DNA of 64,000 bases from Terriglobia bacterium (GTDB lineage Bacteria > Acidobacteriota > Terriglobia > Acidiferrales > UBA7541), in the NCBI GenBank assembly GCA_963695545.1, contig OY968796.1, forward strand, positions 1,856,001 to 1,920,000, given 5' to 3'. The notes beneath the pieces were generated by a model. It was not told the origin of the DNA and ran no database searches. It saw nothing but the letters and a program-made list of their open reading frames with translations. The stretch's first letter is position 1; every line of letters begins with the position of its first letter. This document shows positions 16,241-32,133 of this stretch, piece by piece. The position numbers were made by a program, and so were the translations under genes.

Positions 16241-19200
16241 CTACTTTTCAGATACAGCGACACTCTTGGGCAAGGGAGCGATCTTGCCCTCCCGAAATTC
16301 CTCACCCGTTTCCCGCATCGCGCGCAGCAGCGCCGGCCAATCCTCGTAGTGCGTTGCAAATATTTTCTCGACCATGCGACGCGTCAATTCAGGAACCAAT
16401 TGATTCAGCATCACTGGGGAATAGCCAAGTTCGTCCGCCAAGCGAGCCCAGTACAGATTGTTTGACTCCCAAGATTCGGCCATCAAGCGCGAAGAATAAC
16501 TCTCGAACGTCGGGAGCAGCTTTACATTCATCAACTCGCGGGCGTCACTCTGTCCCAGGGCGGGATGAGGTATCCCAAAATCTTCCGACAGCCGTTCCGG
16601 GCCGACCTCCGCGGGATATTGAGTGGAGAGCTTGGCCAGTTCGTTCCCTGAAGCGCCCCAATGATCGGTGTCTTGCGGGTAGATTCGACGATACTCCTCC
16701 GCCAAGTAGAAGGTCTCCGCCGGCATGACCTCAGCGAGCACTTCGTCCATGTGCCCCGCGCGGAGATCATCCTCAACTCGTTCGGACCTTTGCGTAAGCA
16801 TGCAGTCCGAGAGGATATCCATTACCCGCTGGCGCACTGCGTCATTCTCGGCAGCAGCGGCCAAGAGTTCCTCGCCGGTTCGCTGGTACAGCGCGACAGC
16901 ATGAAGCTCGTTCGGAGTTACGCCCCACCACCGCGGCAGAACCGCGCTGGTCATCATGCTCGGTACCAAGTCCTCCCAGATCAGGGCTTGCACGTTATCC
17001 GGAACGATGAAGTCCTGCTCCGCATCCGCCAGGGCGAACGGCAGATCCGCCAGCGAGCCGACCAGATGGGATCCGCCTACCGCCAACAAGCCGCGGCCAG
17101 ACAACGTCGAGGTCTGCCAGTCAGGCTCTCCCCCGTCGGCAAACACTTCCACGAATTCGTGAGATCGAACGAAAAGGGGATCATTGTGGAGAATTTGAGC
17201 GCCGGGCGGTTCGTAGTAGGCATAGTTCAGGCCCACCAGAGTGTCTCTGAGGAACGGAGTGAGCTCACCGCGAGCCGCGATCAATTCTTGTGCCGAGCCA
17301 GAGTCGATGGCCTTGGCCAAGTCCGTGCGCATCTGCAATTTTGTGTGGCGAGGATCATACTGGCCGGAAGACCACTCATTTTTTTCGGTGCTCGTGAGAA
17401 TTTGCTGCGGCATCTCGAATTCCCGAAGCTGCGCGGCGAGTGGAAGCAGGCTGGCGGCAACGGCCTTTCCTTTGGCCATTTGATCCAAGCCATCCGCGAG
17501 CGCCAATATCGTGTCCAGAGAAACAAGACGCTGAGCGACCATGACCGAGCGAATTCTTTCAGCGATCTCCTGCCTGACTTGCTGGCCGTCGGGGCTTGCC
17601 TGATCGGGGCCCGCCAGCAACGCTACGATGTCGTCCTGGGAAAGATCGGATTTGCCGGTTGCGTCGTGCAACAGTGCAGCGAGTGAAGCTCGGCCCGCGT
17701 CGAAAACTTGTTGTGACGTGGTGATTCCAACAAAGGGATTGATCACGCGCTGCAACGAATCGTTCAAACTTGCATCCGCCATTTGCCCTTGCCGCGCCAG
17801 AATTTGCCACAGACCCACCTCAGCCTGAAAAATGCCGATAGCGTTGCCTCGCACCGTGCCGTCTGGAAGGTGGTCGAGGTCCTCGGCAACTTTCATAAAG
17901 TCTGTGATGGAGGCATTGCTCAGATCGCGAAATTCCGAAAACATCAGGTACTGGTCGCTGAATCGCGAAAATTTGTCGGCCAACAACCGGACTGTTTCCG
18001 GAGTCAATCGCTGTTCGGGTGACCGTCCGCGATCGATTTCGCACAACGAGAGGTATATTTCCAGCGGGCTGTCCATCATTTCCACCCGCGAAAGACCGAA
18101 CATTCCCTCGACAAGATTGTCTGGGCTCTCCCAGCGCGTTGCGCGCCGGCCCCATTCGCCGACGACCTTGGGATCGCTCTCCGTGTCGTGGCCCAGGATG
18201 TACTTCCATGCGTCGAGATTGCCGGGGACGAACGGCTGGCCGCTCGAGTCCAGCTGGAGCTGAGTCACAAGTAGCACGAGTCCCGCATCGGGACGATACG
18301 CGCTCCGGAACGACGTCTGGGAATTATCGTGTCCTCGGAGCGCTGCATAGAAAAGCTGCATTCGGGTTGGATCGGTGAAATAGGCCTGCTGAGTTTTGTT
18401 GCCCCGTGACAGCGCATCATAAAACGCCACCAGCCAGCCGTTGTCTTTGGTGAGCAGGTGAGATACGAATTCTCCGGGCGAATCCGGGCTCGCTCCTACC
18501 AGATCTTTCCACGTGGCTTCCGCGGGAGTTCCCCCGGGCACGACTACGCGTCCGGACCGAATGGAGATGTTACTCGCATAGAAGTCCATGACCGGAGCGT
18601 GGGGAAGCAATTTCGCCAATCCCAGCGATTGGTTCAACGCGTCACACGTTTCGATGTCCATCTGAGACATAGCCCAATAAAGACGGGAGACATCGGGGTC
18701 GCGCACAAGAACGTCAACTACATCGTTTGCGCCTCCCGAGCTCACTTGATCCTTTTTGAATGCGGTCCAGGCGTCCTGCCCGATCAACACCGGCACTTGT
18801 GTGGGAGCGAAAGAATAGGTGAAGGGTTTCGCCGCGCGCAGCGATTCCTCGAGGTCAGCGAGAGGAAAACCCGAATCTATGGTTACGAAGGCCCTACTCG
18901 GATCGGCAGTCTCCAAATAAACTTCCGGTCCACAAGTTTTCTCCAGCCGGTATCCCAAGATCGTCAGCAAGGCGCCCGCGTCGTTGCAAGTCGTCACGCG
19001 GATCACGCCTTCTGAACCAGCCAGCGTTTGCAATTCCCTGGCTTCTTGCAAATACCGCTGCAGGAGGATCAGATACTCCGTGGGCCGGTCACCATCTTTC
19101 CCCGAACCACGATAACCAAGGGTTGCCACACTTCGGGCCAGGAGTGGCAAAACCTCCTCCGGCGAAACTTGCTGGCTGATTCCAGCCATGCGCAATAAGG

Positions 19201-19393
19201 AGCGTAGCGGACCCGGAATGGCCGTCTCCGCCGGATGCAATGACACAGAAGGGTTAACGTCGAAAGGCCGAGTCGCCGCTAGAGGTTCCGACGGCCCTAA
19301 TTGAGCGGCACTTCTTGTCGGAACGGACAGGCAGGAACAAGTGCAGAGAATAGCCGCTGGAAGAATCGTAGAGAGGCGAAAAGAGGATCTCAT
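16241..19393 (-). CDS. Large secreted hypothetical protein (1050 aa)
   Basis: Long ORF with GGAGG RBS and signal peptide; co-oriented with the VWA gene; no recognised domain. Confidence 0.8.
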   Translation of the reverse strand: MRSSFRLSTILPAAILCTCSCLSVPTRSAAQLGPSEPLAATRPFDVNPSVSLHPAETAIPGPLRSLLRMAGISQQVSPEEVLPLLARSVATLGYRGSGKDGDRPTEYLILLQRYLQEARELQTLAGSEGVIRVTTCNDAGALLTILGYRLEKTCGPEVYLETADPSRAFVTIDSGFPLADLEESLRAAKPFTYSFAPTQVPVLIGQDAWTAFKKDQVSSGGANDVVDVLVRDPDVSRLYWAMSQMDIETCDALNQSLGLAKLLPHAPVMDFYASNISIRSGRVVVPGGTPAEATWKDLVGASPDSPGEFVSHLLTKDNGWLVAFYDALSRGNKTQQAYFTDPTRMQLFYAALRGHDNSQTSFRSAYRPDAGLVLLVTQLQLDSSGQPFVPGNLDAWKYILGHDTESDPKVVGEWGRRATRWESPDNLVEGMFGLSRVEMMDSPLEIYLSLCEIDRGRSPEQRLTPETVRLLADKFSRFSDQYLMFSEFRDLSNASITDFMKVAEDLDHLPDGTVRGNAIGIFQAEVGLWQILARQGQMADASLNDSLQRVINPFVGITTSQQVFDAGRASLAALLHDATGKSDLSQDDIVALLAGPDQASPDGQQVRQEIAERIRSVMVAQRLVSLDTILALADGLDQMAKGKAVAASLLPLAAQLREFEMPQQILTSTEKNEWSSGQYDPRHTKLQMRTDLAKAIDSGSAQELIAARGELTPFLRDTLVGLNYAYYEPPGAQILHNDPLFVRSHEFVEVFADGGEPDWQTSTLSGRGLLAVGGSHLVGSLADLPFALADAEQDFIVPDNVQALIWEDLVPSMMTSAVLPRWWGVTPNELHAVALYQRTGEELLAAAAENDAVRQRVMDILSDCMLTQRSERVEDDLRAGHMDEVLAEVMPAETFYLAEEYRRIYPQDTDHWGASGNELAKLSTQYPAEVGPERLSEDFGIPHPALGQSDARELMNVKLLPTFESYSSRLMAESWESNNLYWARLADELGYSPVMLNQLVPELTRRMVEKIFATHYEDWPALLRAMRETGEEFREGKIAPLPKSVAVSEK

Positions 19394-19961
19394 CGCAAAT
19401 ACCTCCCGACTGGCTGCTACTTAATGGCGCCCAATCCAGCGACGCGAATAGCGGGAGAGGACTCGATCCGCTCCCCGATGAATCCTGCAATCTGCTGGCC
19501 TAAATAGCGAGAATCGCGAATTCGATTTGGAGTGCGCGTAAACCGGAATCATTCCCGTTTTACGCGACTAACGTGTTGGCGACCCCCCTTACTGGGCGCA
19601 AGGGTATGCCAATCCCTGGACGTTCGTCAATTGCGACAATGATCTCGACCGGGGGCTCGCAGGCCCGGATCGGCCAAACCCATTTTGGGGCGTGCCGCGG
19701 AAAAATTCCCGCGTCGTGCAGGCGCCTCGCTAGAGTTTCGACGCAATCTTCGCGATTCAATATTCGTGATGCGGCCCACGCAAGGCCGATTTGCGCTTGC
19801 TTGAGATTCCGTTCGGGTCGTTTCGACCTTTGACGATTCTCAGCGGACTGGATTTATCTGATGAAGTACAGAGTTGCAGGTGGGTACATGGCTCCGTGCC
19901 AGCTCGCGCAGGCATGGAACAAGGCGGTCGAGTCTGGACGCAAAATCAGCGCAGGGCGTGG

Positions 19962-20017
19962 TTGAAAACGAATTGTCGGGGCAAGAGGATTTGAACCTCC
20001 GACCTCTAGTCCCGAAC
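19962..20017 (-). repeat. Degenerate copy of the tRNA-Pro 3' half plus flank (att-like direct repeat)
   Basis: TTGAAAACGAATTGTCGGGGCAAGAGGATTTGAACCTCCGACCTCTAGTCCCGAAC aligns to 30716-30772 TTGAAAACAAATGGTCGGGGCGAGAGGATTTGAACCTCCGACCCCCTGGTCCCGAAC. Confidence 0.9.
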
Positions 20018-20254
20018 GAGACTCTAGCGCTTATTGAAATCCATGAATTCCTGTTGATTCTAAGTGATCGCTGTTGATACGTTTGAGGCCTTCTTGTTGA
20101 ACTCCGTTGAGTCTTGTTGAAGTTGGGTGTTTTCGCAGCTGCAAAATTATCTACAGTTTGGCTCCACGCTACTGCCGAGACCGAGTTCGCGTCGAGCTTG
20201 GAACTTTTAGGACGGACAGAGCACGATTGCCTTGCGTCTAAAATCCGATCGCAT

Positions 20255-21709
20255 CTATTCCGCTTCGGCGGCGTTTTCTCGTCTCCCGGAAGCGGTGAAG
20301 TACGATCCAGACGCAAGTCCGACTTTAAGTACCGGATCTTTTCGCGAGGATTCCGTAGCTTCCGGGGCGCTCGCGGGCCCGGGTGAAGTCCGATCATTTC
20401 TTGGTGAGGGAATCCCCGGCTCGGAAGTGTCGAGCCCCTCCTCGATATCTTGGCGAGACTTGAGGCTGAACGCGCCGCGCAAAGCTATGGGCGTCAATAA
20501 GGTAGTGAGTAGCACGACGGCGACCATAACGGCGACCTCGGACCTTCCGAAGATGCCGGTGTTGGCGCCCATCGCCGTGACAATCAACCCAACCTCTCCG
20601 CGCGACATCATGCCGCAACCAACGCGAAGACTGCGCACCCAGTCCATGCCAGACCCGAGAGCAGCGAGACCGCAGCCAATGAGCTTTCCGATAATTGCGA
20701 CGAACAAAATTAGAAGCATCAGCGTCCAATGTCCCGCAAGAGCGCGGTAGTCGCTGGAAAGGCCGATCGAAATGAAAAACAAGGGGATTAATAGTCCGTG
20801 CCCGATCGCATAAAAGCTGCGCTCCACATCCGCCTTGAATTGCGATCCGGCAAAGACGTAGCCCAACAAATATGCTCCGGTGATGCCTGCGACGCTGCCA
20901 AGCCATTCGGCGGATAGCGCATACACCAGCACCAGGGCCAACACGCAACTCGGGACCGCTTCCGTAGCCGTCAATTTTCGCAACTGGATAATTAGCGGGT
21001 CGAGCCAACGTGTCGCCGCCACGTAGCCGATGACGAAAAAGACTACGACGCTCACGCTGATCATCGCCATTTGCACGATCAGCGGGTGAGCGGCCGCCGG
21101 TGCCAACGTCTGCTGCAGCCAACGGCTGGCCATCGGGGCCGCGCCGAACGCCTCTCCCTTGCCCGGCACCGTCGACGCCGCAAGGAAAGCGAGCACGAAC
21201 AGACCCATCACATCGTCGATCACCGCAGCGCCCAGGATCACGGTTGCTTCCTGGGAAGCCATTCGGCCGGCGTCCATCAATGTTCGCGCGGAAATGGATA
21301 CGCTGGTCGCGGTAAGCGCTCCGCCCAGGAAGCACGCGGTCGTCCACGACAGTCCGAGCATGTGAGCCACTGCCGCGCCGAGCAGAAATGGCCAAATCAC
21401 TCCGGACAGTGCGACGACGAAAGCCGTGACGCTCGCTTCGCGCATGCGGTCGATGTCGGTCTCGATGCCCGCTATGAACATCAGCACCAATCCACCGATT
21501 TGCGCGAGGATGAAGAGCGCCCCGGTCGCCTGCCCGCCAGCAAACAGATGCATATGCAATAGGTTGAGCAGGCCGGGGCCGAACAAAACTCCTACGGAGA
21601 GCTCTCCGATGATCGGCGGGATATTAAAATGCGAGCATAGCGAAGCGGCAATTTTGCTGGCCGGAAGAAGGATGGCCAGAAGTACGGCAAGCTGAAGGGC
21701 CGGTTGCAT
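20255..21709 (-). CDS. Cation:proton antiporter (CPA2, NapA/KefB-like)
   Basis: IIGELSVGVLFGP, LMFIAGIETD, ATSVSISAR, AAVIDDV, PLFFISIG, MMSRGEV motifs; start placed at MQPALQ. Confidence 0.9.
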   Translation of the reverse strand: MQPALQLAVLLAILLPASKIAASLCSHFNIPPIIGELSVGVLFGPGLLNLLHMHLFAGGQATGALFILAQIGGLVLMFIAGIETDIDRMREASVTAFVVALSGVIWPFLLGAAVAHMLGLSWTTACFLGGALTATSVSISARTLMDAGRMASQEATVILGAAVIDDVMGLFVLAFLAASTVPGKGEAFGAAPMASRWLQQTLAPAAAHPLIVQMAMISVSVVVFFVIGYVAATRWLDPLIIQLRKLTATEAVPSCVLALVLVYALSAEWLGSVAGITGAYLLGYVFAGSQFKADVERSFYAIGHGLLIPLFFISIGLSSDYRALAGHWTLMLLILFVAIIGKLIGCGLAALGSGMDWVRSLRVGCGMMSRGEVGLIVTAMGANTGIFGRSEVAVMVAVVLLTTLLTPIALRGAFSLKSRQDIEEGLDTSEPGIPSPRNDRTSPGPASAPEATESSRKDPVLKVGLASGSYFTASGRRENAAEAE

Positions 21710-21711
21710 TC

Positions 21712-22293
21712 TTAGCTGGCGTCCACCGCCGCCAAGCCCTCCGCCTTTCCTCGATTCCGCGTGAATAAGCGCCGCACGCGACTGAACGCCAGCCACGGCG
21801 TTCTATAACCATTGCGATCGACGCCCTCCCGCATCATCGTTCGAATCGTCGCGGCCTGGCGCCGCGCCGACTCTGCTTGCGCGAGATTCTGTGCCAGTCG
21901 AGCGGCCCGCTGGGTGTGGTCCTCGGCTTTGGTGATTACCCGCAAGCGCATCCACAGTTCGCCCATTTTCAAATGCGCGATGAAACTATTGGGGTCAAGC
22001 CTCACAGCATCGCCCAACTCCTCCATCGCATCCTGCACCTGCAGATTCACGCACAGCGCCATGCCAAACACGACGCGCAGTTCCGAAATCTTCGGATTTT
22101 GCGCCACGCATTCTCGTAAGGCTTTCACCAACTCAGCGCGCTCCTCTTTCGCGAGCACGTTGGGATCGGCGAACATTCGCAATAGAAATCCTTGTGCGCG
22201 AGCCGGCACCGAGGCCAGGGCCAAGGAGGGCTGTCTCGCGCTCAAGAAGCTTTCTGAGTTTTCGTCTCTGCGTATGATTTCGATTTCGCCCAT
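21712..22293 (-). CDS. TPR-like helical hypothetical protein
   Basis: LGDAVRLDPNSFIAHLKMGELW resembles a TPR repeat; start uncertain (22293 or 22371); stop abuts the antiporter start. Confidence 0.65.
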   Translation of the reverse strand: MGEIEIIRRDENSESFLSARQPSLALASVPARAQGFLLRMFADPNVLAKEERAELVKALRECVAQNPKISELRVVFGMALCVNLQVQDAMEELGDAVRLDPNSFIAHLKMGELWMRLRVITKAEDHTQRAARLAQNLAQAESARRQAATIRTMMREGVDRNGYRTPWLAFSRVRRLFTRNRGKAEGLAAVDAS

Positions 22294-22423
22294 GATGTTT
22301 GTGTCCTTAAACCTCAGGTTCGTCTGCCACCTTCGTGAAGCGATTGCCGAACGCCACGTCCCAGCAAGCAAGACGCGTGGCCGAGGCGCGTCTTGCCGCT
22401 AGGCGTGTACTGCAACTCGTTGA

Positions 22424-24094
22424 TCAAGACACCGCGTATTCCTTTTCTGCCTTGATCATCCAATCCGGTTCCGGGTTCAGAGCAAACTCGGGATATCCAA
22501 GTTGGCCCATTTCCGGAATGTCCAGACCGGCTATCTCTGTCTCGATCGAAACTCGCTGTCCGATCACGAATTCCAGAGCGAGGTTGACGAGGAAACTGAA
22601 GGTGAAGACGAATCCGATGAGCGTCGAAATGCCCACAAGCTGTGCGGCAAGCTGGCTGGCATCGCCGTAGAATAGTCCGGTGACCGAACCGGTGACTCCG
22701 TTCCACGCTCCGCCGTAGTTGCTTGTGCCGTCGGCAAGAAGCCCGACGGAAAGCACGCCCCACAGACCGCAGGTCCCGTGCACCGAGATCGCACCGACTG
22801 GATCGTCGACCTTCATGACGTTCTCGATGAAGGAGCAACTCAAGACGACCAAAACGCCAGCCACGAGGCCGATGATGCAGGCCCCGACGGTGCTCACGAA
22901 ACCGCTGGGCGCGGTAATCGCAACGAGGCCCGCGAGGAGCCCGTTGCCGCTCATTGAGTAGTCCACCTTGCCGTTCTTCATCCACATGAACAGCATGGCG
23001 CCGAATGTGCCGGTGCAACCGGCAAGCATCGTGTCCACCGCGATCGTGCCGATCCGCAGATTTCCTGCGGCGGACGCACCCAATGTGCTGCCGGGATTGA
23101 ATCCGAACCAGCCGAACGCCAGGATGAAGCAGCCGATCAGCACGGCCGAGACGTCGTGGCCGATGATCGGGTTGCCCGAACCATCGCGGTTAAATTTTCC
23201 GATGCGCGGTCCGACGATGATGCTGACAGCGAGCGCCGTAATTCCCCCCACGGCGTGCACCACACCGGAGCCGGCAAAGTCACAGTAGCCCTTGCCCAGT
23301 TGGTTGTTGACGCCGAGTTGGGAGAGCCAGCCGCCGCCCCAAGCCCAGTTGCCATAGATTGGATAAGTGAGTGCGCCCATGATCGAAGAAGACACGCAGA
23401 ACGCCAGAAACTTCCAACGCTCGGCGCATGCTCCGGTCACGATGGTCAGCGCAGTGTCCATGAACACCATCTCGAACAGGAAAATCACCATCACCCCGAC
23501 GTCGTACGTGTGGCCGGAGAGAAGGTGGCCGGTCCATCCGAAGAGGCCCCACGTCTTGCCGAAGAGAGAGAATGTGTGCTCGGCAGAGAGCGACTGAAGT
23601 CCTCCGAGGTTACCGTTGCCCGCGGCTCCGCCCATTTGTATGGCGAAGCCCATTAACCAGTAGGAGAACAGACCGCACGCGTACACCATGAAATTCATCA
23701 TGTACGTATGATTTGCGTTCTTCACGCGGGTTAAGCCCGATTCCACCATCGCGAAACCCGCCTGCATGAACATGACCAGGAAGCCGGTGACGAGCGTCCA
23801 GACGAAGTTGATCGCGATCTTGTTTTGTCCGACTTGGTTGGCCACATCCGGAAGCGTGAGCCCGGTGGTGGGATTGGAAACCGGTACATCGTTGATTGTT
23901 CCGGTGATCGTCCCGCCTGGATCGCCCTTCGCCAAGTCCGCCACGGTAGGAGCTTTGGCTGCCCCCGCCGCCAGTTCAGCGGTTGAGGCGGACGTAGGCG
24001 CCGCAGCTGGAGCCGGCGTCTGCGCACGTAGCGCGATCCCCGCAGCGAGCGTGATGATTGCGAGGCCGAAAAAAAGGTTCCGCATTTTTTTCAT
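22424..24094 (-). CDS. amt: Ammonium transporter (Amt family) with signal peptide and extended N-terminus
   Basis: MQAGFAMVESG, GACAER, DFAGSGVVH, GWFGFNPGS, DDPVGAISVHG (both pore His retained), GLD tail. Confidence 0.96.
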   Translation of the reverse strand: MKKMRNLFFGLAIITLAAGIALRAQTPAPAAAPTSASTAELAAGAAKAPTVADLAKGDPGGTITGTINDVPVSNPTTGLTLPDVANQVGQNKIAINFVWTLVTGFLVMFMQAGFAMVESGLTRVKNANHTYMMNFMVYACGLFSYWLMGFAIQMGGAAGNGNLGGLQSLSAEHTFSLFGKTWGLFGWTGHLLSGHTYDVGVMVIFLFEMVFMDTALTIVTGACAERWKFLAFCVSSSIMGALTYPIYGNWAWGGGWLSQLGVNNQLGKGYCDFAGSGVVHAVGGITALAVSIIVGPRIGKFNRDGSGNPIIGHDVSAVLIGCFILAFGWFGFNPGSTLGASAAGNLRIGTIAVDTMLAGCTGTFGAMLFMWMKNGKVDYSMSGNGLLAGLVAITAPSGFVSTVGACIIGLVAGVLVVLSCSFIENVMKVDDPVGAISVHGTCGLWGVLSVGLLADGTSNYGGAWNGVTGSVTGLFYGDASQLAAQLVGISTLIGFVFTFSFLVNLALEFVIGQRVSIETEIAGLDIPEMGQLGYPEFALNPEPDWMIKAEKEYAVS

Positions 24095-24144
24095 CTTTAT
24101 TCTTCGCTCCTAATCGTAAGATTGCCGGCGAGAGGCCGGCCCGT

Positions 24145-24537
24145 TCAGCTTTTCTTCCAAACCGCGTTCTTATTGAATGCCGCTGGCAAAACCACGATGA
24201 TCCCGAACAGACTCACGGCGATACCCACCAACGCAAGGGCAATTCGCCCGCCGGTGCTGGGAGTGAGGTGCATGCCGAAGAGCGTGATCACCCATCCCAG
24301 CGCTGCTACTGCGGCGCCGACCAATTTCATCGCGAGTGGGTTGGACTTGAGTGCGGTCTTGCCCTCCAGCGACTTGATACTCCACATTCCGAACAGGCTA
24401 CCGACCAACCCCGCCCCTCCGACGATCATGAGCACCGTGCCCGTTCCGCTGGGAGCGTAGTAGATGCCGGCACAAAGCACGGTCGCTGCCGCCAAGAACA
24501 ACGCGTAATAGTTTCCTTGCGATTTGTTCGCTGCCAT
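24145..24537 (-). CDS. Small 4-TM membrane protein of unknown function directly upstream of amt
   Basis: GAGGAGG RBS; four hydrophobic segments in 130 aa. Confidence 0.75.
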   Translation of the reverse strand: MAANKSQGNYYALFLAAATVLCAGIYYAPSGTGTVLMIVGGAGLVGSLFGMWSIKSLEGKTALKSNPLAMKLVGAAVAALGWVITLFGMHLTPSTGGRIALALVGIAVSLFGIIVVLPAAFNKNAVWKKS

Positions 24538-24772
24538 TAAACCTTTCCTCCTCGACCCGAAAGGGTCATTTGCGAAGTAGCAAGTCCCGTATAACTTTCA
24601 CGCTTTCCCGTGGTCCCATTGCGCCCTGGTCCAGCCAGAAGCGACACCGATACAGATTGGCCCTCGTTGTCAAAAAGCTACTTTCTTCACGGCTGGATCT
24701 TGTCGCGTCGCGCGCCCGACTGAATCCGCGTCTTCAGACCGCGGAGAATGGCGCAAACGCGTACCGGGTGTT

Positions 24773-25081
24773 TCATCTTGTCCTCGCCACTTCCGGTGCT
24801 TGCGCGCGTGTTGGCACCGCAAGAAACATCACGAACTCCATCGCGACGGTCATCTCGGCGACCATGGGAGCTCCTCTCTGCGCCCGTATTACGAGGAGGA
24901 GTGCGACCATCGAAAACCACTGCCAACGGGACCGGCGCAGCCGTTCCAGGCGCGCCGGCAGACGAAACAGATTCCCAAACTCCAGTTTTCCACCGTCAAC
25001 CGCGGGTACGCTCGTGCGCAGGCAGGCGACAGCAAAAAACCCCGCAAGTATTATCTCGACAAGAAAATTCTGGTAACCCAT
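24773..25081 (-). CDS. Small hypothetical membrane protein
   Basis: GAGGGGG RBS; hydrophobic segments; co-oriented with neighbours. Confidence 0.6.
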   Translation of the reverse strand: MGYQNFLVEIILAGFFAVACLRTSVPAVDGGKLEFGNLFRLPARLERLRRSRWQWFSMVALLLVIRAQRGAPMVAEMTVAMEFVMFLAVPTRAQAPEVARTR

Positions 25082-25111
25082 GAATCCCCCCTCGTGTTGG
25101 GCCTCGACGGA

Positions 25112-25606
25112 CTAGGCGTGGCTTGAAATCCCCAGAGCCACTTCTTCTCCCATCGAGTCCTCGGCCGGCATGCTCACCAAAATCTCTTCCTCAAGCGAAA
25201 ATCGCAGACCAAAAAGTTTGGCCCGCATCGGCAGTGAACGTATTCTGGAAGCCACCTGATCGTGTCTCTTGATCGTGCCCGCGATGATGAGTTCCAGTGG
25301 CGCGCCCGCCGTGTATCGGAAGACCCGAACGCACGCCATGTGAAGATCTGCGAAGGCCCAGAACATGAACTCACGCACCCGCAGTGCGTCTCGCAGAGCT
25401 TGCGCGGAGGAATTGCGCTGCCCCACGCTCGGCGCCAACTCCGCGTCCCACTGATCGGCTGGCCGCGCAACCCAGTCGCATTCGGCGTAATCGCCGCGCA
25501 GTTCTATCCGCAGTAGCCTCAGGGGAGCGCGGGAAAGGTCGCCGTATTGGGCGCGCATCCTGAATTTACGGGCAAAATCGCCAACTTCACTCAAGCGCCT
25601 GATCAT
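25112..25606 (-). CDS. Hypothetical cytoplasmic protein (about 164 aa)
   Basis: GGGAGGG RBS before MIRRLSEV; the ORF-track extension to 25927 is low-complexity and probably leader. Confidence 0.6.
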   Translation of the reverse strand: MIRRLSEVGDFARKFRMRAQYGDLSRAPLRLLRIELRGDYAECDWVARPADQWDAELAPSVGQRNSSAQALRDALRVREFMFWAFADLHMACVRVFRYTAGAPLELIIAGTIKRHDQVASRIRSLPMRAKLFGLRFSLEEEILVSMPAEDSMGEEVALGISSHA

Positions 25607-25964
25607 CGCTCCCTCCCTTCTGTTGCCCGCGTCCGAGATCCGGTCACCCTCAGCCGTTGCGCCGCCGCTCGTTCTCTCAGACGGCGGCAATTGTGCGTAC
25701 CGCGGTCGAGCGGCCAAGACTCGCTCGTGGCTCGCAATCGGGCGAGTAGATCGGTCCCCGCGCTCCGAGGGTCGCAGCGCGGCGCTCTGGCGGGCCCTGG
25801 GAGAGATATTCAAAAACTTTCTTTCCGTTTCTTGACTCAACGCTTTTCTCCGCGCGACTACTTTTTCCCACTCTGGAGGCAATGAGCCTACCGCCGAGGC
25901 GCAAACAACACGCCCCGCCCGTGCCACGGACGGTGTATGAAGACACGTCCGCGAAATTCGTTTT

Positions 25965-26081
25965 AGCTCGGCGTCGAGCCTAATTTAGCGATTGGTTCGG
26001 ACACGGCGTCGTGTCCGCGACAACTGAGAAGGGATTCCTCATCTCGGCAACGAGCGAGGAACTGAAGGCATCTTCGCCTTC
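25965..26081 (-). promoter_or_regulatory. Putative ANTAR-target RNA: four tandem hexaloop hairpins in a 5' leader
   Basis: Minus strand: GAAGGC-GAAGAU-GCCUUC (26081-26064); CUC-GUUGCC-GAG within UUCCUC/GAGGAA (26061-26035); CGGACAC-GACGCC-GUGUCCG (26017-25998); GGCUC-GACGCC-GAGCU (25980-25965). All are C-G closed with G at loop positions 1 and 4; adjacent to an ANTAR gene. Confidence 0.7.
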
Positions 26082-26087
26082 GTGCGG

Positions 26088-26116
26088 AGATTGCAATGTT
26101 TCAGAAGAAGAGTCAA
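26088..26116 (-). promoter_or_regulatory. Candidate sigma70 promoter for the hairpin leader
   Basis: TTGACT-N17-CAATCT on the minus strand; predicted start near 26081 coincides with hairpin 1. Confidence 0.45.
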
Positions 26117-26146
26117 ATGCAAACTTTGAATCAAGTCAATCGAATC

Positions 26147-27157
26147 CTATGACACTCCAGCAGAGGCCGTTCGCTTCCTGGATGCTGCGGAAATCGGAGC
26201 GGGAGTGCGCTTCAGGTCGTCGCTCAAAATGATTGCTTCGGCGATCTCTCTCATCGACTTTCGCCTTTCCTGGCTTTCGCGCTGAATAGTCCGGTAGGCG
26301 GAGTCTTCGGAAATTTTCAGTTCAGATTGCAATATGCCTTTCGCGCGTTCGATCAGCGTCCGCATTTCCAATTTCTTTAGAAGCAGAGAGTTCTCGTTTT
26401 CTAGCCGGACTCTTTCGATTTCGGAGCCCACCAGTACGCCAAGCGTCGCGATCAGGGTGATTTGGCGCTCGCTATATTGATGTTGTTTCCGATTCTGTAC
26501 GTTTACGACGCCGATCAACTTGCCGCCACTGACCACCGGGACGGACAGAAACGCTTCGAACCGATCCTCGGGCAATTCATTGAATAGCTTGAAGCGCCGG
26601 TCCTCGTAGGCGCGCTGCGCGACGACCACGGGTTCCCGATTCACGGCGACCCAACCGGTGATTCCTTGTCCCATTTTCATTGCCAAGCGGTCTACAACTT
26701 CGGGATGTGGATTCTTGGACGCTCGCAGGACGAGCTCGTCTTTTTCGAGCACGTAGAGCATGCACGAATCGCACTGCACGGCGGCGGTCACGAACTTCAC
26801 GACTTCTTCGAGGACCTCATGCATTGGAGCGGCCGCGGACAAGCGAACGGCGAGTCGATTCAGGAGAACAAAATCGATGTCGCGATTCGTCGCGCCGTTG
26901 TGGTCTCGGCTTACCGGAACTAAAGTCGCCCGCTGCAAGAGAGCCACCAAGAGCCTCCTGTTCGTATACCTTCCACTTTGAAGCGACAGCCATGTCCGCG
27001 CGATCACGGTGGAAATGTCTGCGTTAAAGGTCGATTTTATCCTGGCGCTTCGCGAGAGCATCGCCGTCTTTCGGGGCGCCCAGGCTATCTTTTGGCTAGG
27101 GTAGGTATCATCGGAGGGTCTTGCTGCGATAATACGGTCAGCCAGAATGCGGTCCAT
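26147..27157 (-). CDS. GAF-ANTAR RNA-binding regulator (true start probably downstream of 27157)
   Basis: GAF: GQGITGWVA..REPV...FLSVPV..GKLIGVVNVQ; ANTAR: RTLIERAKGILQ..LKISEDSAYRTIQRESQERRKSMREIAEAII. Confidence 0.92.
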   Translation of the reverse strand: MDRILADRIIAARPSDDTYPSQKIAWAPRKTAMLSRSARIKSTFNADISTVIARTWLSLQSGRYTNRRLLVALLQRATLVPVSRDHNGATNRDIDFVLLNRLAVRLSAAAPMHEVLEEVVKFVTAAVQCDSCMLYVLEKDELVLRASKNPHPEVVDRLAMKMGQGITGWVAVNREPVVVAQRAYEDRRFKLFNELPEDRFEAFLSVPVVSGGKLIGVVNVQNRKQHQYSERQITLIATLGVLVGSEIERVRLENENSLLLKKLEMRTLIERAKGILQSELKISEDSAYRTIQRESQERRKSMREIAEAIILSDDLKRTPAPISAASRKRTASAGVS

Positions 27158-27176
27158 GGGAGATTAATTCGCGCGT

Positions 27177-28568
27177 ATGGACGCCTACTCCATCTATTCC
27201 GAGACCAATCGGACTGCTCTGCTGGCGACGAGCTTAATTCTGATATTCGCGATCGCGGTGATCGATGTGGTCACTCCGAGTTTTCCGCTCGGGTATCTAT
27301 ACCTCCTTCCAATTCTTCTTGTCTCTGGATTCTTGGATCGCGAGTGGATTACCATTATCGTGATCCTCTGCGCTTTCTTGACGGCTGCTTTGAGCCGCTA
27401 TGAGTTCAAACAAGCGGTCGTCCTTTTCCTGATGGCCTTGACCGCTTTTGGTGGCACGGGCTTTTTCGTTTCCGAGGTCGTTCTAAATCGCCAAAAAGCG
27501 CTCGATTACATTCGGAAAATGGAAACCGAAATACGCTTGCGGCGGGAAACTGAAGACCAACTGCTCGGACTCGTTCAAAGTAGCCCGCTCGCGATCGTAA
27601 CCATCGGCGCGAACGGGGAAATACTCTTGGCCAACGACGCCGCCCAGAACTTGTTCGCTCCTGGAGACGCTCCGATTCCAGGCCAACCGATTGCGCAATT
27701 TCTGCCCGCCCTGCAGTCCGTGACGCAGCAATCCCGCTCGCATCTTTTTCGTACACGCATTCGGTGTCGGGGACAACGCAAAGGTGGCGAAATGTTCCTC
27801 GCCACGGTTTGGTTCTCCACCGCGCTGACCGCAGTCGGACTGATCGTTTTAGCGATTATTATCGATTTTTCCGAAGACGTCCAGGATCGGGAAGATCTGA
27901 GCCTCGAGCACCTCCTGAAGAATGCCAGAATCCTAGTGGGCGCGATCTCGCACGAAATCCGAAATTTATGCGGTGCCGCGTTGATCGTATTTAGAAACCT
28001 CTCTCGAGTCCCCGAACTGTCGCGCAATGAAGATTTCAATGCGCTCGGCGCATTGATTGGCGGACTCGAGAAATTATCGACGATGGAGTTGAAGCCGTCG
28101 TCGCTTCAAGACCTGGGTGCTGTCGAGCTGTTTTCGGTACTGGATGAATTCCGGGTTGTCGTCGAGCACGCTTGCCGGGAGTCCGGCATCAAAGTGATTT
28201 GGAACGTACAGGAGTCTCTGCCATTGGTGACCGGCGATCGGTACGGCATGCAGCAGGTTTTCCTAAACCTTGCGCGAAATAGCCAGCGCGCAATGGAAGC
28301 CACCGCTCGCAAAGAACTCGCGATCACCAGCGAGGTCAGTGCGGCGTCCGTCGTGCTCCGTTTTGAGGACACCGGCATCGGCGTGTCGGATACATCCCAG
28401 TTATTCCGGCCATTCAATGAACGAGGTACCACCGGCCTTGGCTTATATGTTTCACGCGCGATTCTCCGCAGCTTTCACGGCGACCTTCAGCACGAGGAGC
28501 GCACCGAAGGCTGTTCGTTTGCTGTTACGCTCGAAAGATTCGTTTCCTCGGAGGATGACGGCGCGTGA
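27177..28568 (+). CDS. Membrane sensor histidine kinase (about 4 TM + PAS + HisKA + HATPase)
   Basis: PAS SSPLAIVTI..NGEILLANDAAQNLF; H-box SHEIRN; N-box QVFLNLARN; DTGIG; LFRPF; GLGL. Confidence 0.9.
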   Translation: MDAYSIYSETNRTALLATSLILIFAIAVIDVVTPSFPLGYLYLLPILLVSGFLDREWITIIVILCAFLTAALSRYEFKQAVVLFLMALTAFGGTGFFVSEVVLNRQKALDYIRKMETEIRLRRETEDQLLGLVQSSPLAIVTIGANGEILLANDAAQNLFAPGDAPIPGQPIAQFLPALQSVTQQSRSHLFRTRIRCRGQRKGGEMFLATVWFSTALTAVGLIVLAIIIDFSEDVQDREDLSLEHLLKNARILVGAISHEIRNLCGAALIVFRNLSRVPELSRNEDFNALGALIGGLEKLSTMELKPSSLQDLGAVELFSVLDEFRVVVEHACRESGIKVIWNVQESLPLVTGDRYGMQQVFLNLARNSQRAMEATARKELAITSEVSAASVVLRFEDTGIGVSDTSQLFRPFNERGTTGLGLYVSRAILRSFHGDLQHEERTEGCSFAVTLERFVSSEDDGA

Positions 28569-29218
28569 CCACTCCTGCCGGCGATATTCGGATCTTGCTC
28601 GTCGACGATCACTCGCTGTTTCGAGAAAGCCTGGCGAGGTTGCTCCAAGCCGAGCCGGGTTTCGATCTTGCGGCACATTGCGGTTCCGGCGCGGAAGCCT
28701 TGCAAATTTTGAAGTCCCGCGTGATCGATCTCGTTTTGCTCGACGTCGATCTCGGTACAGAACGGGCTGCCCACGTCATCGATGACTTTCGCGCCATCGG
28801 CTATCCGGGAAAGATTCTGCTGGTCACCGCCGGGGTCGACGAGAGCGAAGTTCCGGACTTTATTCGCAAAGGAATCGCCGGCGTCTTTATGAAGCACAAT
28901 TCTCCGGCGCTCTTGATCCAGGGAATTCGCGAAACGATGCAAGGCAAAGTATGGTTTGAGCAGGACCTCCTGAAGAGGGCGTTTCAGGGGGCCGTCGCCG
29001 GCCGGACCGCCGCTGCTCCCGCCAAGCTCACCAAGCGGGAAAGGGAAGTCATGTCCTTTGTCTTCGAGGGCCTGGCCAACAAGCAGATCGCGGATCGAAT
29101 CCACGTTTCAGAAAGCGCGGTGAAAGCATGCCTTCAGCAATTGTTTGACAAGACCGGCGTGCGAACTCGAAGCCAATTGGTTCGAGTCGCGCTCGAACGA
29201 TATCGTGACGAGTTATAG
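28565..29218 (+). CDS. NarL/LuxR-family response regulator
   Basis: LVDDH...LLDVD receiver with conserved T and K; LTKREREV..GLANKQIA LuxR HTH; overlaps the kinase stop (GTGA). Confidence 0.93.
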   Translation: MTTPAGDIRILLVDDHSLFRESLARLLQAEPGFDLAAHCGSGAEALQILKSRVIDLVLLDVDLGTERAAHVIDDFRAIGYPGKILLVTAGVDESEVPDFIRKGIAGVFMKHNSPALLIQGIRETMQGKVWFEQDLLKRAFQGAVAGRTAAAPAKLTKREREVMSFVFEGLANKQIADRIHVSESAVKACLQQLFDKTGVRTRSQLVRVALERYRDEL

Positions 29219-29284
29219 CGCGTTCGAGGCTTGGCGCTTCGATCCGCCGGAATAAAAATACAGTCGCGGTTCTCGCGGCACGAC

Positions 29285-30235
29285 CTAATGCCGCGAGAAA
29301 TAAAGTAGCAATCCAAAAATCAAGATGGGGATGAAGGCAAGCGTCACATACAACACGATTGTTCCTGTTCCTGGCCCGCGTTGTTTTTTCCAGTCCCGCA
29401 GCTCGGCGCGGTCCGCCACGCCAACCTGATCAAGGTGCTGCAAATCGTGCGCGAATTCGTGCGCGCTCCCGTAGCGATTCCTGTGTTCTCGCTCCAGAGC
29501 CCTGCAGATCACCTCTTGTAACTGAAGTGAAATCGAGGGATCGATTTCGCGTGGCGGAATCGGATATGTCAACAACCGGTCAAATGGATCGCTTCCCGCG
29601 AACGGCGTCGCGCCCGTGAGCATTTCGTACAGAATCACGCCGAGCGAGTAGATATCGCTGCGTGCGTCGCCTCGTTTCCCCGACAATTCTTCGGGAGAAA
29701 TGTACGGCGTTACTCCCACGATTTGCGCAAGGCTCGTGAACGTCAATCGCGCCGAACCCTCCTTCGCGGCGGCGCCAAAATCCGTCAATTTGATGTGATC
29801 GTCGGGCCCGACCAGGATGTTCTCCGGCCTTAGGTTGCGGTGCACCACGCCATGGTTGTGAATGTACTCAAGCACATCGCACACCGACACGGCGATCCGA
29901 TTCGCCCGATCTTGAGAGAGCCTTTTCTCCTGATTGAGTATTCGGCGTAGTGATTGGCTTTCAAACCACTCGGTCACCAAGTACGTCTGGCCGCGATGCT
30001 CGTCGGGATGTAGTTTCAGCAGCCCGGGGTGGCTTAGGGTCTTGCCGATCTCCTCTTCGCGGTGAAAGCGATCGAACAGCGCGACGTCACTTTCGACTTC
30101 AGGATGCGGAATCTTAAGAGCTACCGGCTGGTTCGTGCGGAGGTCGGTGGCCCGAAAAGTGGATGTGGTGTTGCTGCTTGATACGAGGCTGTCGATGCGA
30201 TAGTGATCGAACTGGTCGCCGAGGTTGATGGACAT
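29285..30235 (-). CDS. Hanks-type Ser/Thr kinase-like protein with C-terminal TM; probable pseudokinase
   Basis: VALK, DFG, YISPE, SDIYSLG present, but HRNLRPEN replaces HRDLKPEN and the glycine-rich loop is absent. Confidence 0.85.
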   Translation of the reverse strand: MSINLGDQFDHYRIDSLVSSSNTTSTFRATDLRTNQPVALKIPHPEVESDVALFDRFHREEEIGKTLSHPGLLKLHPDEHRGQTYLVTEWFESQSLRRILNQEKRLSQDRANRIAVSVCDVLEYIHNHGVVHRNLRPENILVGPDDHIKLTDFGAAAKEGSARLTFTSLAQIVGVTPYISPEELSGKRGDARSDIYSLGVILYEMLTGATPFAGSDPFDRLLTYPIPPREIDPSISLQLQEVICRALEREHRNRYGSAHEFAHDLQHLDQVGVADRAELRDWKKQRGPGTGTIVLYVTLAFIPILIFGLLLYFSRH

Positions 30236-30726
30236 GTCCGTTCCTGCGTCGGCAGAAGGCCATCATGATTACATCAGCCCTCGGCCTCGCTCCGTGTGTG
30301 ACGCCCTCGGCTCGACGCCTCACTTCAGAGTCTGTGAACCGCGACTTAGGGTAATACCACCAACAAATAATCCGCAAGACTATCTTTCGGTGATCGGGTT
30401 TGCCGCTAAAACCGCGGATGCCCGTGGTGCAAGCGCTGAGTGTGGGCGATAGCGTTATCGGAAGTTTTTGTACCAGCGCGGTGAGAGAAAATTCACCCTG
30501 GAAGGAAGTCGGTATGCCGCTGAGGACGTACGAGCTGGCGACGCTGCTGCGGCAGGTCGAATTCGAAGTCGCCAAGCTGAGTGCGCATAGCTTTGAGACG
30601 TGCGCAGCGCCCGATTCCGCTCAACGCGGGTCGATTCTTACTGAGGATTTTTGCTAGCGCACCTGACCTAAAACCAGGTGGCCGAGTTTGCGCCTGAACT
30701 GAACCCTCTAAATACTTGAAAACAAA

Positions 30727-30803
<77 letters not shown>

Positions 30804-30963
30804 ACTGCGGACGCCTCGGCACAGAAGCTGCGCCAAGGCTCACGATTTATCAGAATAGCACAGGCGCAGGGGGCCAGCCAGCGCGCCGGAAGCGCCACAT
30901 TCGTCTTGGTTCTTCTCGATCGTTCTTCAGTCTGTGCGTCTTCTCCATCTCGATCGTCTCCGG

Positions 30964-31776
30964 TCACCTGGGCACGCAGAAAATGTCGTAGTGGGGCCAG
31001 GTCATCACGTCGCGCTCCTCGAGGCGTTGGCCGAGGTAGTGGGCGTCGTCTTCCCACCGATGAATGGCGTAATTGAGATCGATGATCATCCGGAAAAGGC
31101 GTTCGCGCTGCGGCGCGTTTGTGGCTTTGAACACTTCAGCGCGCAGATAAGGGCGCGTCTGGGCGATCACGCCGGTGAGCGTTGAAAGCACCGTCGCGTC
31201 GTAACCTTCGGCGTCGACTTTGATGTAGCGAATCCGAGGCAGCAGATCGGCGTAATCGCGACCCAGCACCGCGGCGAGATTCCGTCCTTGCACCCGCAGC
31301 TTGAAAGCGTGGCCGTGCCTCCATCGGCTGATGCCCTCGTGCAAGCCGCCGTTGCAGAACCCAGCGTCGGAATATTCGAAATCCAGTTCGCCATCTTCGG
31401 GCGTGGCGGCGAACATTAGTGGGACGATGCGCGCTTTTGAAGTGTTGAGCTGCGAATTTTTTTCGAGGATGGGGAATACGTAGGGGTTTGGCTCGAGCGC
31501 GAGCACTGCGCCCGTCGGCCCGACAGCCAGGGCCATCGGCAACGTGGAATCTCCGGTGTGCGCGCCGATATCGATCGCCACATCCCCGGGTGAGAGAAAT
31601 TTCCTCAATTCATCCACCGACTCCTGCCGGATGTTTTTCGCTGATTCCCTCGGATGAAGCCATTGCGCGTATTGGATGTCGCCGTCGGCGGGCAACTGGA
31701 ACGACCGGACCTCATAGCCATAGGTCCGCGGCTTCGGACGCATTCCCAGCAAGTAGAGCCATTCCTTTGCTTTCAT
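30964..31776 (-). CDS. FkbM family methyltransferase
   Basis: IDIGAHTG, VLALEPNP, IKVDAEG motifs. Confidence 0.9.
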   Translation of the reverse strand: MKAKEWLYLLGMRPKPRTYGYEVRSFQLPADGDIQYAQWLHPRESAKNIRQESVDELRKFLSPGDVAIDIGAHTGDSTLPMALAVGPTGAVLALEPNPYVFPILEKNSQLNTSKARIVPLMFAATPEDGELDFEYSDAGFCNGGLHEGISRWRHGHAFKLRVQGRNLAAVLGRDYADLLPRIRYIKVDAEGYDATVLSTLTGVIAQTRPYLRAEVFKATNAPQRERLFRMIIDLNYAIHRWEDDAHYLGQRLEERDVMTWPHYDIFCVPR

Positions 31777-32133
31777 GGGTTCGCGGCCGTCAATCCCAAA
31801 CTGACACGCGGGGCCGAATGCGCATCCTATTATAAGGGGCGGGGTGTTGCATGGCGGACTTGAGAATCCCGCCCAACCCCAGTCCTGGCGGGAGTGGCTG
31901 GCAGCGTGTCATCGGGCGCGGAAATCTCGAAAGACCGATGCGGCGCTAGGGCGTACCGCTTGTCGCATGGCGCGGAGTAACTTTTTGCGCGGTGGCACGT
32001 CTAAAGATGCATAATGAGGAAAAGGGTAAAGGGCACGGTCGATCTTCGGTAAGCCGAGGCAGACCCCGCAGGCAGGTGCGAAATTTCTGATTTTCGACTT
32101 CATCTCAAACGAATACGCGGAGGCATTACGTCC

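Follow-up and report, generated by a model that had tools for sequence, protein, structure and literature searches.

Bacterial Amt ammonium channels are generally viewed as stand-alone trimers that are gated by GlnK. Regulation of Amt proceeds via the C-terminal tail and the loops, including loops 1, 3, and 5, and binding of GlnK rearranges both the tail and loop 5 (PMC13745463). In Geobacter sulfurreducens, the ANTAR protein GnfR acts on the leaders of nitrogen genes that include a hypothetical gene-glnK-amtB operon (PMC2995071), and ANTAR RNAs have been predicted upstream of ammonium transporter and PII genes (PMC3369931). Many actinobacterial ANTAR targets lack terminators (PMC8164766), and no GAF-ANTAR protein had been characterized by 2012 (PMC3369931). 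PtsP (EI-Ntr) responds to glutamine and 2-oxoglutarate in a GAF-dependent manner (PMC13104625). Here, we describe a block of genes at positions 20255..27157 of a 64,000-nucleotide stretch, called the window below, from a Terriglobia bacterium of the order Acidiferrales (assembly GCA_963695545.1, contig OY968796.1, positions 1,856,001 to 1,920,000). A GAF-ANTAR gene and a hairpin leader precede an amt gene in this block.

We favor, with moderate confidence, the reading that the block is a conserved ammonium uptake operon of Acidiferrales-type acidobacteria that is carried here on a tRNA-Pro islet. In this reading, an ANTAR protein likely binds the leader, a small dedicated membrane subunit, U130, is a predicted partner of the Amt channel, and an antiporter that exports cations likely works alongside the channel. 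The seven co-oriented genes of the first-pass annotation were recovered as stop-free minus-strand frames in the open reading frame list and translations of the window. The annotation had overlooked that a neighboring kinase-like gene belongs to the module and that tRNA-Pro sequences flank the block. The features of the module are, in the direction of transcription:

29285..30235, minus strand: Hanks-type pseudokinase, membrane anchored, module member (PF00069)
26147..26950, minus strand, in an open frame up to 27157: GAF-ANTAR regulator (PF13185/PF01590 and PF03861)
26088..26132, minus strand: conserved sigma70-like promoter (-35 TTGACT at 26116-26111, 17-nucleotide spacer, -10 CAATCT at 26093-26088, AT-rich upstream element)
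26064..26081, minus strand: hexaloop hairpin of the G-N-N-G-N-N type, loop GAAGAT
26037..26059, minus strand: hexaloop hairpin H1, loop GTTGCC, with compensatory stem changes among homologues
25998..26017, minus strand: hexaloop hairpin H2, loop GACGCC, the most highly conserved leader element
25965..25980, minus strand: hexaloop hairpin H3, loop GACGCC, separated from H2 by a 17-nucleotide A-rich linker
25901..25939, minus strand: weak terminator-like hairpin with a short U-rich tail, not overlapping H3
25112..25606, minus strand: U164, soluble alpha/beta protein, no Pfam or NCBIfam match
24773..25081, minus strand: U102, small hydrophobic protein, no Pfam or NCBIfam match
24145..24537, minus strand: U130, four-helix membrane protein, no Pfam or NCBIfam match
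22424..24094, minus strand: Amt ammonium channel (PF00909; TIGR00836 above cutoff)
21712..22293, minus strand: TPR protein, 2 nucleotides from the antiporter start (weak TPR matches in Pfam and NCBIfam)
20255..21709, minus strand: NapA-like CPA2 cation/H+ antiporter with an Asp-Asp motif (PF00999; TIGR00932 below cutoff)

The starts of U164 (25606), the TPR gene (22293), and the CPA2 gene (21709) are corrected values. The ANTAR gene probably starts near 26950 rather than at 27157, where its frame opens, because an AGGAGG site and the onset of homology lie there.

Comparison with described systems

That an ANTAR protein controls amt is in itself no novelty (Geobacter GnfR; Ramesh 2012). The first-pass annotation knew of no described system with this architecture, but ANTAR control of amtB/glnK has been described in Geobacter (PMC2995071). 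The window shares with GnfK/GnfR an ANTAR protein and leaders at nitrogen genes that include amt. However, GnfR is a REC-ANTAR protein associated with sigma54 promoters and clear terminators, whereas the system described here has a GAF (or DUF4118) ANTAR protein, a sigma70-like promoter, loops with G at positions 1 and 4, no overlapping terminator in the window, and a different gene cargo. Tandem hexaloops with G at position 4 and the residues that read this G are shared with EutV/eut, NasR/nasF, and AmiR/amiE (PMC3369931, PMC8934654). In contrast to these, there are three or four hairpins, position 1 of the loop is G or A, the equivalents of EutV M172, N173, and R177 are changed, and the window leader overlaps neither a terminator nor a ribosome-binding site.

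The GAF domains of EI-Ntr (PtsP) are the closest solved GAF domains by sequence (E ~1e-18), but that of the window is fused to an RNA-binding output and is ~30% identical. An intact Amt pore and a C-terminal regulatory motif are held in common with AmtB-GlnK and AMT1/Mep2. Here, however, the operon is without glnK, an intramembrane partner is predicted on helix M11 and the tail, and the coencoded kinase-like protein looks catalytically dead. The antiporter has the Asp-Asp and related conserved motifs of NapA-type CPA2 proteins (PDB 4bwz, 5bz2, 5bz3), but it is paired with a TPR protein, not with an RCK subunit, and can be replaced by an IT-superfamily transporter. A CPA2 protein, AmhMT of Bacillus pseudofirmus, is reportedly tied to ammonium handling; our literature search gave nothing relevant on it. 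The system thus resembles a known ANTAR nitrogen switch, fails the test for classical antitermination, and is not an amtB-glnK operon. Its new element is a conserved accessory cassette, above all the predicted U130 membrane subunit.

Two operon types behind one leader

Synteny was examined at 118 loci anchored on U164, of which 38 came from genomes and 80 from a set of 276 metagenome matches. One locus was without a hit, 31, mostly on short contigs, lacked an Amt within range, 32 had the layout of the window (type A), and 54 had a second layout (type B). Type A loci were mostly from genomes (29/32), and type B loci were mostly metagenomic (47/54) and partly redundant. Denominators are the loci long enough for the given test. 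In type A, Amt proteins are 67 to 96% identical, glnK is found beside amt in 0/30 loci, the TPR gene lies directly 3' of amt in 30/30, and CPA2 (27/30), a kinase-like gene (26/27), U130 (32/32), and U102 (31/31) are present, with an ANTAR gene in cis in 16/30. In type B, Amt is ~37% identical, glnK is found in 32/32 loci, and the TPR gene (0/32), CPA2 (0/20), kinase (0/8), U130 (0/54), and U102 (0/49) are lacking, with ANTAR in cis in 25/29. U102, like U130, is therefore specific to the glnK-less type. These counts provide the synteny check called for in the first-pass annotation, and the genes are co-conserved across 32 related type A loci.

Behind the same leader, then, lies either amt-glnK or a different Amt together with U102, U130, TPR protein, antiporter, and pseudokinase but without glnK, and this arrangement is new. 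Two interchangeable cassettes behind one leader amount to a natural experiment on replacing or supplementing PII control in a common soil lineage. Some of the loci without Amt carry an amino acid permease in its place. The three type A loci without CPA2 have an IT-superfamily transporter in the same slot. A 610-amino-acid protein of this kind (PF03600 just under cutoff) replaces or accompanies CPA2 after the TPR gene at L093:8896-10731, L107, L110, and L234.

U164 was found in 36/284 genomes of the window's family, in none of the order's other two families, and in 0/400 genomes of a phylum-wide sample; within the samples searched, it is confined to this family. It accompanies both Amt types and is dispensable in some loci. 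Searches independent of the U164 anchor recovered the type A cassette without U164 at L235, L236, and L255, and U164 is also missing from L234. Tandem arrays with the order U164-U102-U164-U130 occur at L087, L127, and L130, and loss of the second U164 from such an array accounts for the swapped gene order of the window. Two loci, L234 and L257, combine two half-U130 genes, an Amt that is 68 to 71% identical, the TPR gene, and an antiporter with glnK. In a quick tree with long branches, the glnK-less Amts form one clade (99 in the SH-like approximate likelihood ratio test [SH-aLRT]), and L234 and L257 branch outside it. Hence, glnK was dropped from the operon in one lineage, along with a Gln-to-Glu change at position 208 and a Glu-to-Ala change at position 522.

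U130 is a predicted membrane subunit of Amt

In U130, two 2-helix genes are fused; they are split in L234, L257, and L258. In four other families, this Amt clade is preceded by half-U130 genes, as is the degenerate core Amt of the window's genome. The C-terminal half of U130 matches the small gene before this degenerate Amt, the best non-self match among 28,821 open reading frames (E 0.007). No solved structure with a sequence relationship to U130 was found, and its matches in the Atlas were unnamed clusters only.

Cofolding of U130 with Amt residues 58-546 gave a score of 0.86, while the best control scored 0.00. This mark was reached by 116/157 solved pairs but by only 2/215 mismatched pairs. 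At least 86% of the contacts agreed between model runs, and the partner had a predicted local distance difference test (pLDDT) value of at least 83. The modeled interface comprises Amt helix M11 (479-505), the tail (509-528), and the M5-M6 loop (288-298). By the architecture of AmtB, this surface faces the lipid and not the trimer interface. Interface identity kept pace with the rest of the protein in the U-linked degenerate Amts (0.30 to 0.37 versus 0.34 to 0.40) and fell behind it in type B (0.23 to 0.30 versus 0.41 to 0.46), but diagnostic sites gave no significant difference (p = 0.23). On the basis of these models, U130 is predicted to be a dedicated auxiliary membrane subunit of Amt that clamps its last helix and regulatory C-terminal tail. 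A description of a membrane subunit of a bacterial Amt, or of this operon, was not found in the literature searched, which took in few subscription journals.

The Amt channel and its relation to PII

The window Amt has intact twin His residues (His280 and His439), Phe gate, Trp/Ser/Asp site, and C-terminal motif, as judged from motif columns, with residue roles as in the Escherichia coli protein. It is the only Amt of the genome with an intact pore and C-terminal motif; the second Amt is degenerate. Glu208, where most Amts have Gln, is shared by the window Amt and all 27 aligned type A, U164-linked Amts, and the Glu-to-Ala change in the C-terminal motif (Ala522) is seen in 26 rows. Neither change is found in the two basal loci with glnK.

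The absence of glnK beside amt, reported in the first-pass annotation, was confirmed; the sole PII gene of the genome lies elsewhere, beside a porin gene, glnA, and urease. The annotation took this absence to mean PII independence. In its full form, this reading states that the channel is truly independent of PII, that the accessories (U102, U130, TPR protein, antiporter, and pseudokinase) replaced GlnK in a derived clade, and that GAF-ANTAR alone sets expression. The type A counts for glnK agree with it, as do the well-supported glnK-less clade with its shared Glu208 and Ala522 and the predicted placement of U130 on the tail and loop 5, both of which are rearranged when GlnK binds (PMC13745463). 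We nevertheless consider it unlikely. The PII protein of the genome has the T-loop Arg that plugs the channel, and PII is encoded in 35/35 relative genomes (one match partial). PII proteins commonly act in trans. Furthermore, L234 and L257 combine the U130 halves, the TPR gene, and the antiporter with glnK and an Amt of the same broader clade, and these accessories are therefore compatible with PII. PII independence is thus unproven, and the favored reading of an ammonium uptake operon with an auxiliary subunit leaves room for PII.

A stronger form of the subunit proposal is that Amt traded its GlnK plug for a membrane-embedded subunit. U130 would grip M11 and the tail and, with U102, the TPR protein, the pseudokinase, and the cation/H+ antiporter, would gate ammonium entry and export the surplus, while an acid-titratable Glu208 would tune the channel to low pH. 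We rate this form as rather unlikely. Control of a bacterial Amt by a small membrane subunit that sits on its last helix and regulatory tail would in any case be novel.

A plant-like phospho-Thr site on the Amt tail was considered and rejected: in an alignment by motif, the plant position (PMC13745463) is Pro, and the module kinase looks dead.

In the core genome, a 59-amino-acid two-helix gene homologous to the C-terminal half of U130 precedes the degenerate Amt (G000:C1:150561-156390, L009; congeners L277-L280). The first His of this Amt is changed to Gln, and its Phe gate and Ser site are altered. Genes for an APC permease, a PP2C phosphatase, and an intact Ser/Thr kinase run divergently from it. 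The retrieved loci of congeners and a locus from another family (L259) keep this arrangement. The degenerate Amt could be a nonconducting Amt sensor wired to Ser/Thr phosphosignaling.

The GAF-ANTAR regulator and the other accessory proteins

The ANTAR domain matches PF03861 with 59.8 bits (cutoff 27.3). The best PDB sequence matches of the window GAF are PtsP GAF domains and one uncharacterized GAF. Its top match in NCBIfam, which covers the GAF part alone, is likewise PtsP. The PtsP-like character proposed in the first-pass annotation was thus borne out by both searches. The ANTAR domain retains the G4-reading residues equivalent to EutV R142, E160, and Y164 and also the equivalent of R175. 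The proposal of a one-component GAF sensor as the defining part of the system was, however, not supported. Besides ANTAR standing in cis in about half of the type A loci, the sensors on the cis ANTAR in 17 type A loci were 9 GAF, 1 REC-GAF, 3 DUF4118, and 4 unclassified by motif. The sensor on the cis ANTAR therefore appears exchangeable among GAF, REC-GAF, and DUF4118.

The antiporter has the Asp-Asp ion-binding motif and the conserved Lys/Arg motifs of NapA-like electrogenic CPA2 proteins. Under an inward proton motive force, antiporters of this type take protons in and move cations out. A cation valve therefore fits better than a proton sink. The coupling of ammonium uptake to antiport in the first-pass annotation was sustained in that the slot after the TPR gene is conserved (27/30 CPA2, 3 IT superfamily), but the suggested offset of a proton load was not, since a NapA-type protein imports protons. 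The TPR protein has 752 homologues, and the named ones are mostly from "Candidatus Acidiferrales." The window pseudokinase has Asn for the catalytic Asp and has lost the Gly loop, and so lacks the marks of an active Hanks-type kinase. The module kinase-like copies are nearly all degenerate (Asp, Asn, DFG motif, or Gly loop lost), while the core paralogue is intact. U164 has 104 homologues and a structure model with a pLDDT of 86, whose best structural match has a Z score of 7.0, a level common for unrelated folds. Searches for its function gave no Foldseek match at an E value of <=0.001, no PDB sequence under an E value of 0.5, and unnamed clusters only in the Atlas.

The variety of sensors and the constant antiporter slot bear on another explanation, in which the leader belongs to a regulon for cation (NH4+/K+) homeostasis that is read at the membrane, rather than to one for nitrogen status. 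KdpD-like DUF4118 sensors would feed ANTAR directly or via a two-component system, and the antiporter would be the point of the operon. DUF4118-ANTAR, DUF4118-GAF-ANTAR, and DUF4118 kinases are found upstream in many loci, and DUF4118 is the membrane domain of KdpD. The slot after the TPR gene always holds an antiporter-like gene, and the same leader lies 5' of a 753-amino-acid APC transporter, which resembles KimA-type K+ transporters by motif only. On the other hand, the window GAF scores far higher with PtsP than with the GAF_3 model, the other targets of the leader or promoter are amt-glnK and amino acid permeases, and some copies are beside glnA-like sequences. We regard this explanation as quite improbable and retain the ammonium uptake reading. 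The APC arrangement was seen at L232:4420-8214, L233, and L244, where the same ANTAR gene and leader precede a 307- to 311-amino-acid open reading frame and/or the 753-amino-acid transporter.

The genome encodes a core paralogue of the window GAF-ANTAR protein (56% identity) next to hemD/cobA. The paralogue gene (G000:C1:211029-216654, L007; L041-L044) follows hemD, faces cobA (sirohaem genes), adjoins sat-tauE-cysH, and lies 8 kb from glnB-porin-glnA-urease. No RNA targets of this paralogue were found in this genome by the covariance model or pattern scan. Between a short Cys-rich reading frame and sat lies a hairpin that resembles a terminator and has a long U tract (G000:C1:210850-211030); it is possibly a cysteine-responsive attenuator.

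The leader hairpins and their promoter

The hairpin leader that had been noted after the first gene was confirmed; its hexaloops are of the ANTAR type and are conserved in relatives. Four G-N-N-G-N-N hexaloop hairpins lie within 26081-25965. The 188-nucleotide leader stretch folds with a z score of -4.2, better than all 200 shuffles, and its tandem pair of GACGCC loops occurs once in the genome. H2 was found in 85/118 sequences, or 76 after removal of duplicates, and many of the misses were short contigs. The search pattern fixed the stem, and so the loop alone is informative: G is at position 4 in 74/76 leaders and a purine at position 1 in 69/76 (A 35, G 34, other 7). All four window hairpins have G at position 1, rather than the A of ANTAR dual-hexaloop systems. 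H3 follows H2 in 49/76 leaders, with G at position 4 in 45/49. In an alignment of 40 leaders, 85% of the cells pair, and compensatory changes are found mainly in H1, a test that is inflated by relatedness.

A covariance model gave the window leader 89 bits in the sense and 32 bits in the antisense direction. Its strong matches in the family lie 5' of type A, type B, and APC transporter operons, nearly always right after an ANTAR gene. In this genome, the covariance model found no second leader site, and a pattern scan for further ANTAR targets was at background. Among 30 type A genome loci, H2 is kept in 25/25 whose genome has this ANTAR class. The other five are in genomes that lack the class; three of these have lost the H2 element (two near-identical) and two keep it. 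Under a loose rule, terminator-like hairpins were enriched in the sense direction (36/76 leaders versus 17 shuffled and 7 antisense). An ANTAR protein likely binds the leader hairpins. A first biochemical study of a GAF-ANTAR protein with changes at RNA-binding residues and with G at loop position 1 could use this leader as a clean and well-sampled RNA target.

The competing idea that the H2 palindrome is a DNA operator for the neighboring LuxR/FixJ-type response regulator, with the ANTAR gene a bystander, draws on the barely varying six-base arms of H2, the kinase/regulator pair upstream in many loci, and the failure to find a terminator switch, but is highly improbable, because the loop lacks the strand symmetry expected of a DNA palindrome and has G fixed at position 4, G-U (13) exceeds A-C (3) at the variable stem pair, H1 covaries, the H3 loop is nonpalindromic, and loss of the ANTAR class goes along with loss of the element.

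A promoter element directly follows the ANTAR stop codon and consists of an AT-rich box, a -35 element, and, 17 to 18 nucleotides on, a -10 element with the key A and T; it was found by pattern in 51/76 leaders. When the genome was scanned with a matrix of this promoter, the top two matches after the window (25.8 and 24.9 bits) preceded amino acid permeases, and the next scored 16.7. These two copies lie at G000:C1:152517 and 3474235, each 5' of an amino acid/amine permease. A strict sigma54 consensus is absent from 20001-30800, as had been stated before, although rpoN is encoded in the genome. Downstream of the ANTAR gene, the operon carries a separate sigma70-like promoter. Since this promoter lies between the ANTAR stop and the hairpins, the ANTAR gene is probably outside the transcript, and its proposed cotranscription with the rest of the operon is doubtful.

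Proposed mechanism

Under the ammonium uptake reading, transcription would start from the sigma70-like promoter after the ANTAR stop and proceed through three or four G4 hexaloop hairpins. Initiation may be nitrogen responsive, because the same promoter element precedes two amino acid permeases. The PtsP-like GAF would read glutamine/2-oxoglutarate, and an ANTAR dimer, either in cis or from the core paralogue in trans, would bind the hexaloops and raise read-through under nitrogen shortage, a mode and sign that are hypothetical. U130 is predicted to wrap helix M11 and to touch the C-terminal tail and the M5-M6 loop and therefore would stabilize or tune the gate. The TPR protein and antiporter may together act as a valve through which Na+, K+, or surplus NH4+ leaves the cell in exchange for protons, with the pseudokinase as a putative scaffold. 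The single chromosomal PII could probably still block the channel in trans, so that glnK would be lost from the operon but not necessarily from the mechanism.

Several observations weigh against this reading. The two layouts track two Amt clades and are not 86 independent events, and so few independent events lie behind the synteny counts. Folding of the Amt-U130 complex used a single Amt monomer and shallow alignments (14 and 11 rows), and in a sequence test of the predicted interface, the counts of diagnostic sites did not differ significantly (8/50 versus 4/52, p = 0.23). On the sensor side, identity to the PtsP GAF domains is low (~30%), DUF4118 takes the place of GAF in many loci, and the window ANTAR differs from EutV at the M172, N173, and R177 equivalents noted above, of which EutV M172 is essential (PMC8934654). 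The H2 stem hardly varies, partly due to the search pattern, and therefore gives little information on RNA structure. The hairpins are also kept in two genomes with only weak ANTAR hits (L077 and, with a G-U change, L078). Finally, a terminator overlaps H3 in only 6/76 leaders, with no such overlap in the window, and forcing the hexaloops altered the predicted terminator in 2/26 leaders and left it unchanged in 24/26. Because overlap is rare and forcing is nearly without effect, classical antitermination, in which the second hairpin excludes an overlapping terminator, is unsupported and was rejected.

Genomic setting

An intact tRNA-Pro(CGG) gene and, 10.7 kb away, a degenerate copy of its 3' end flank the module, the kinase-like gene included, together with a divergent kinase/regulator pair. 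The remaining features of this islet are:

30727..30803, minus strand: tRNA-Pro(CGG), intact, upstream islet border (ARAGORN and Rfam)
28565..29218, plus strand: NarL/LuxR-type response regulator, divergent from the module (Pfam and NCBIfam)
27177..28568, plus strand: PAS histidine kinase, divergent from the module (Pfam and NCBIfam)
27129..27156, minus strand: sigma70-like site upstream of the probable ANTAR start (consensus scan, with matches no commoner than in shuffles)
19962..20020, minus strand: degenerate, att-like copy of the tRNA-Pro 3' end, downstream islet border (88% over 60 nucleotides; repeats D1/D18)

A response regulator like the divergent one of the window is also present in L086 and L093. 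The tRNA was the sole match in an Rfam scan of 19000-32000. The G+C content of the islet is 57.4%, compared to 60.6% for the genome, and 22/388 genome windows are comparably low. No integrase open reading frame was found inside the islet. The window Amt is present in 0/5 congeners, whose tRNA-Pro sites hold other cargo. With its intact tRNA, duplicated 3' end, and variable cargo among congeners, the block probably sits on a decayed tRNA-Pro islet. Outside the islet, 16241-19393 encodes a 1,050-amino-acid, secreted-looking protein without a Pfam or NCBIfam match that adjoins a VWA-like gene. The tRNA-Pro(CGG) gene is an integration hotspot of the genus, with several 3'-end copies per genome, each with different cargo (G001, G003, and G004).

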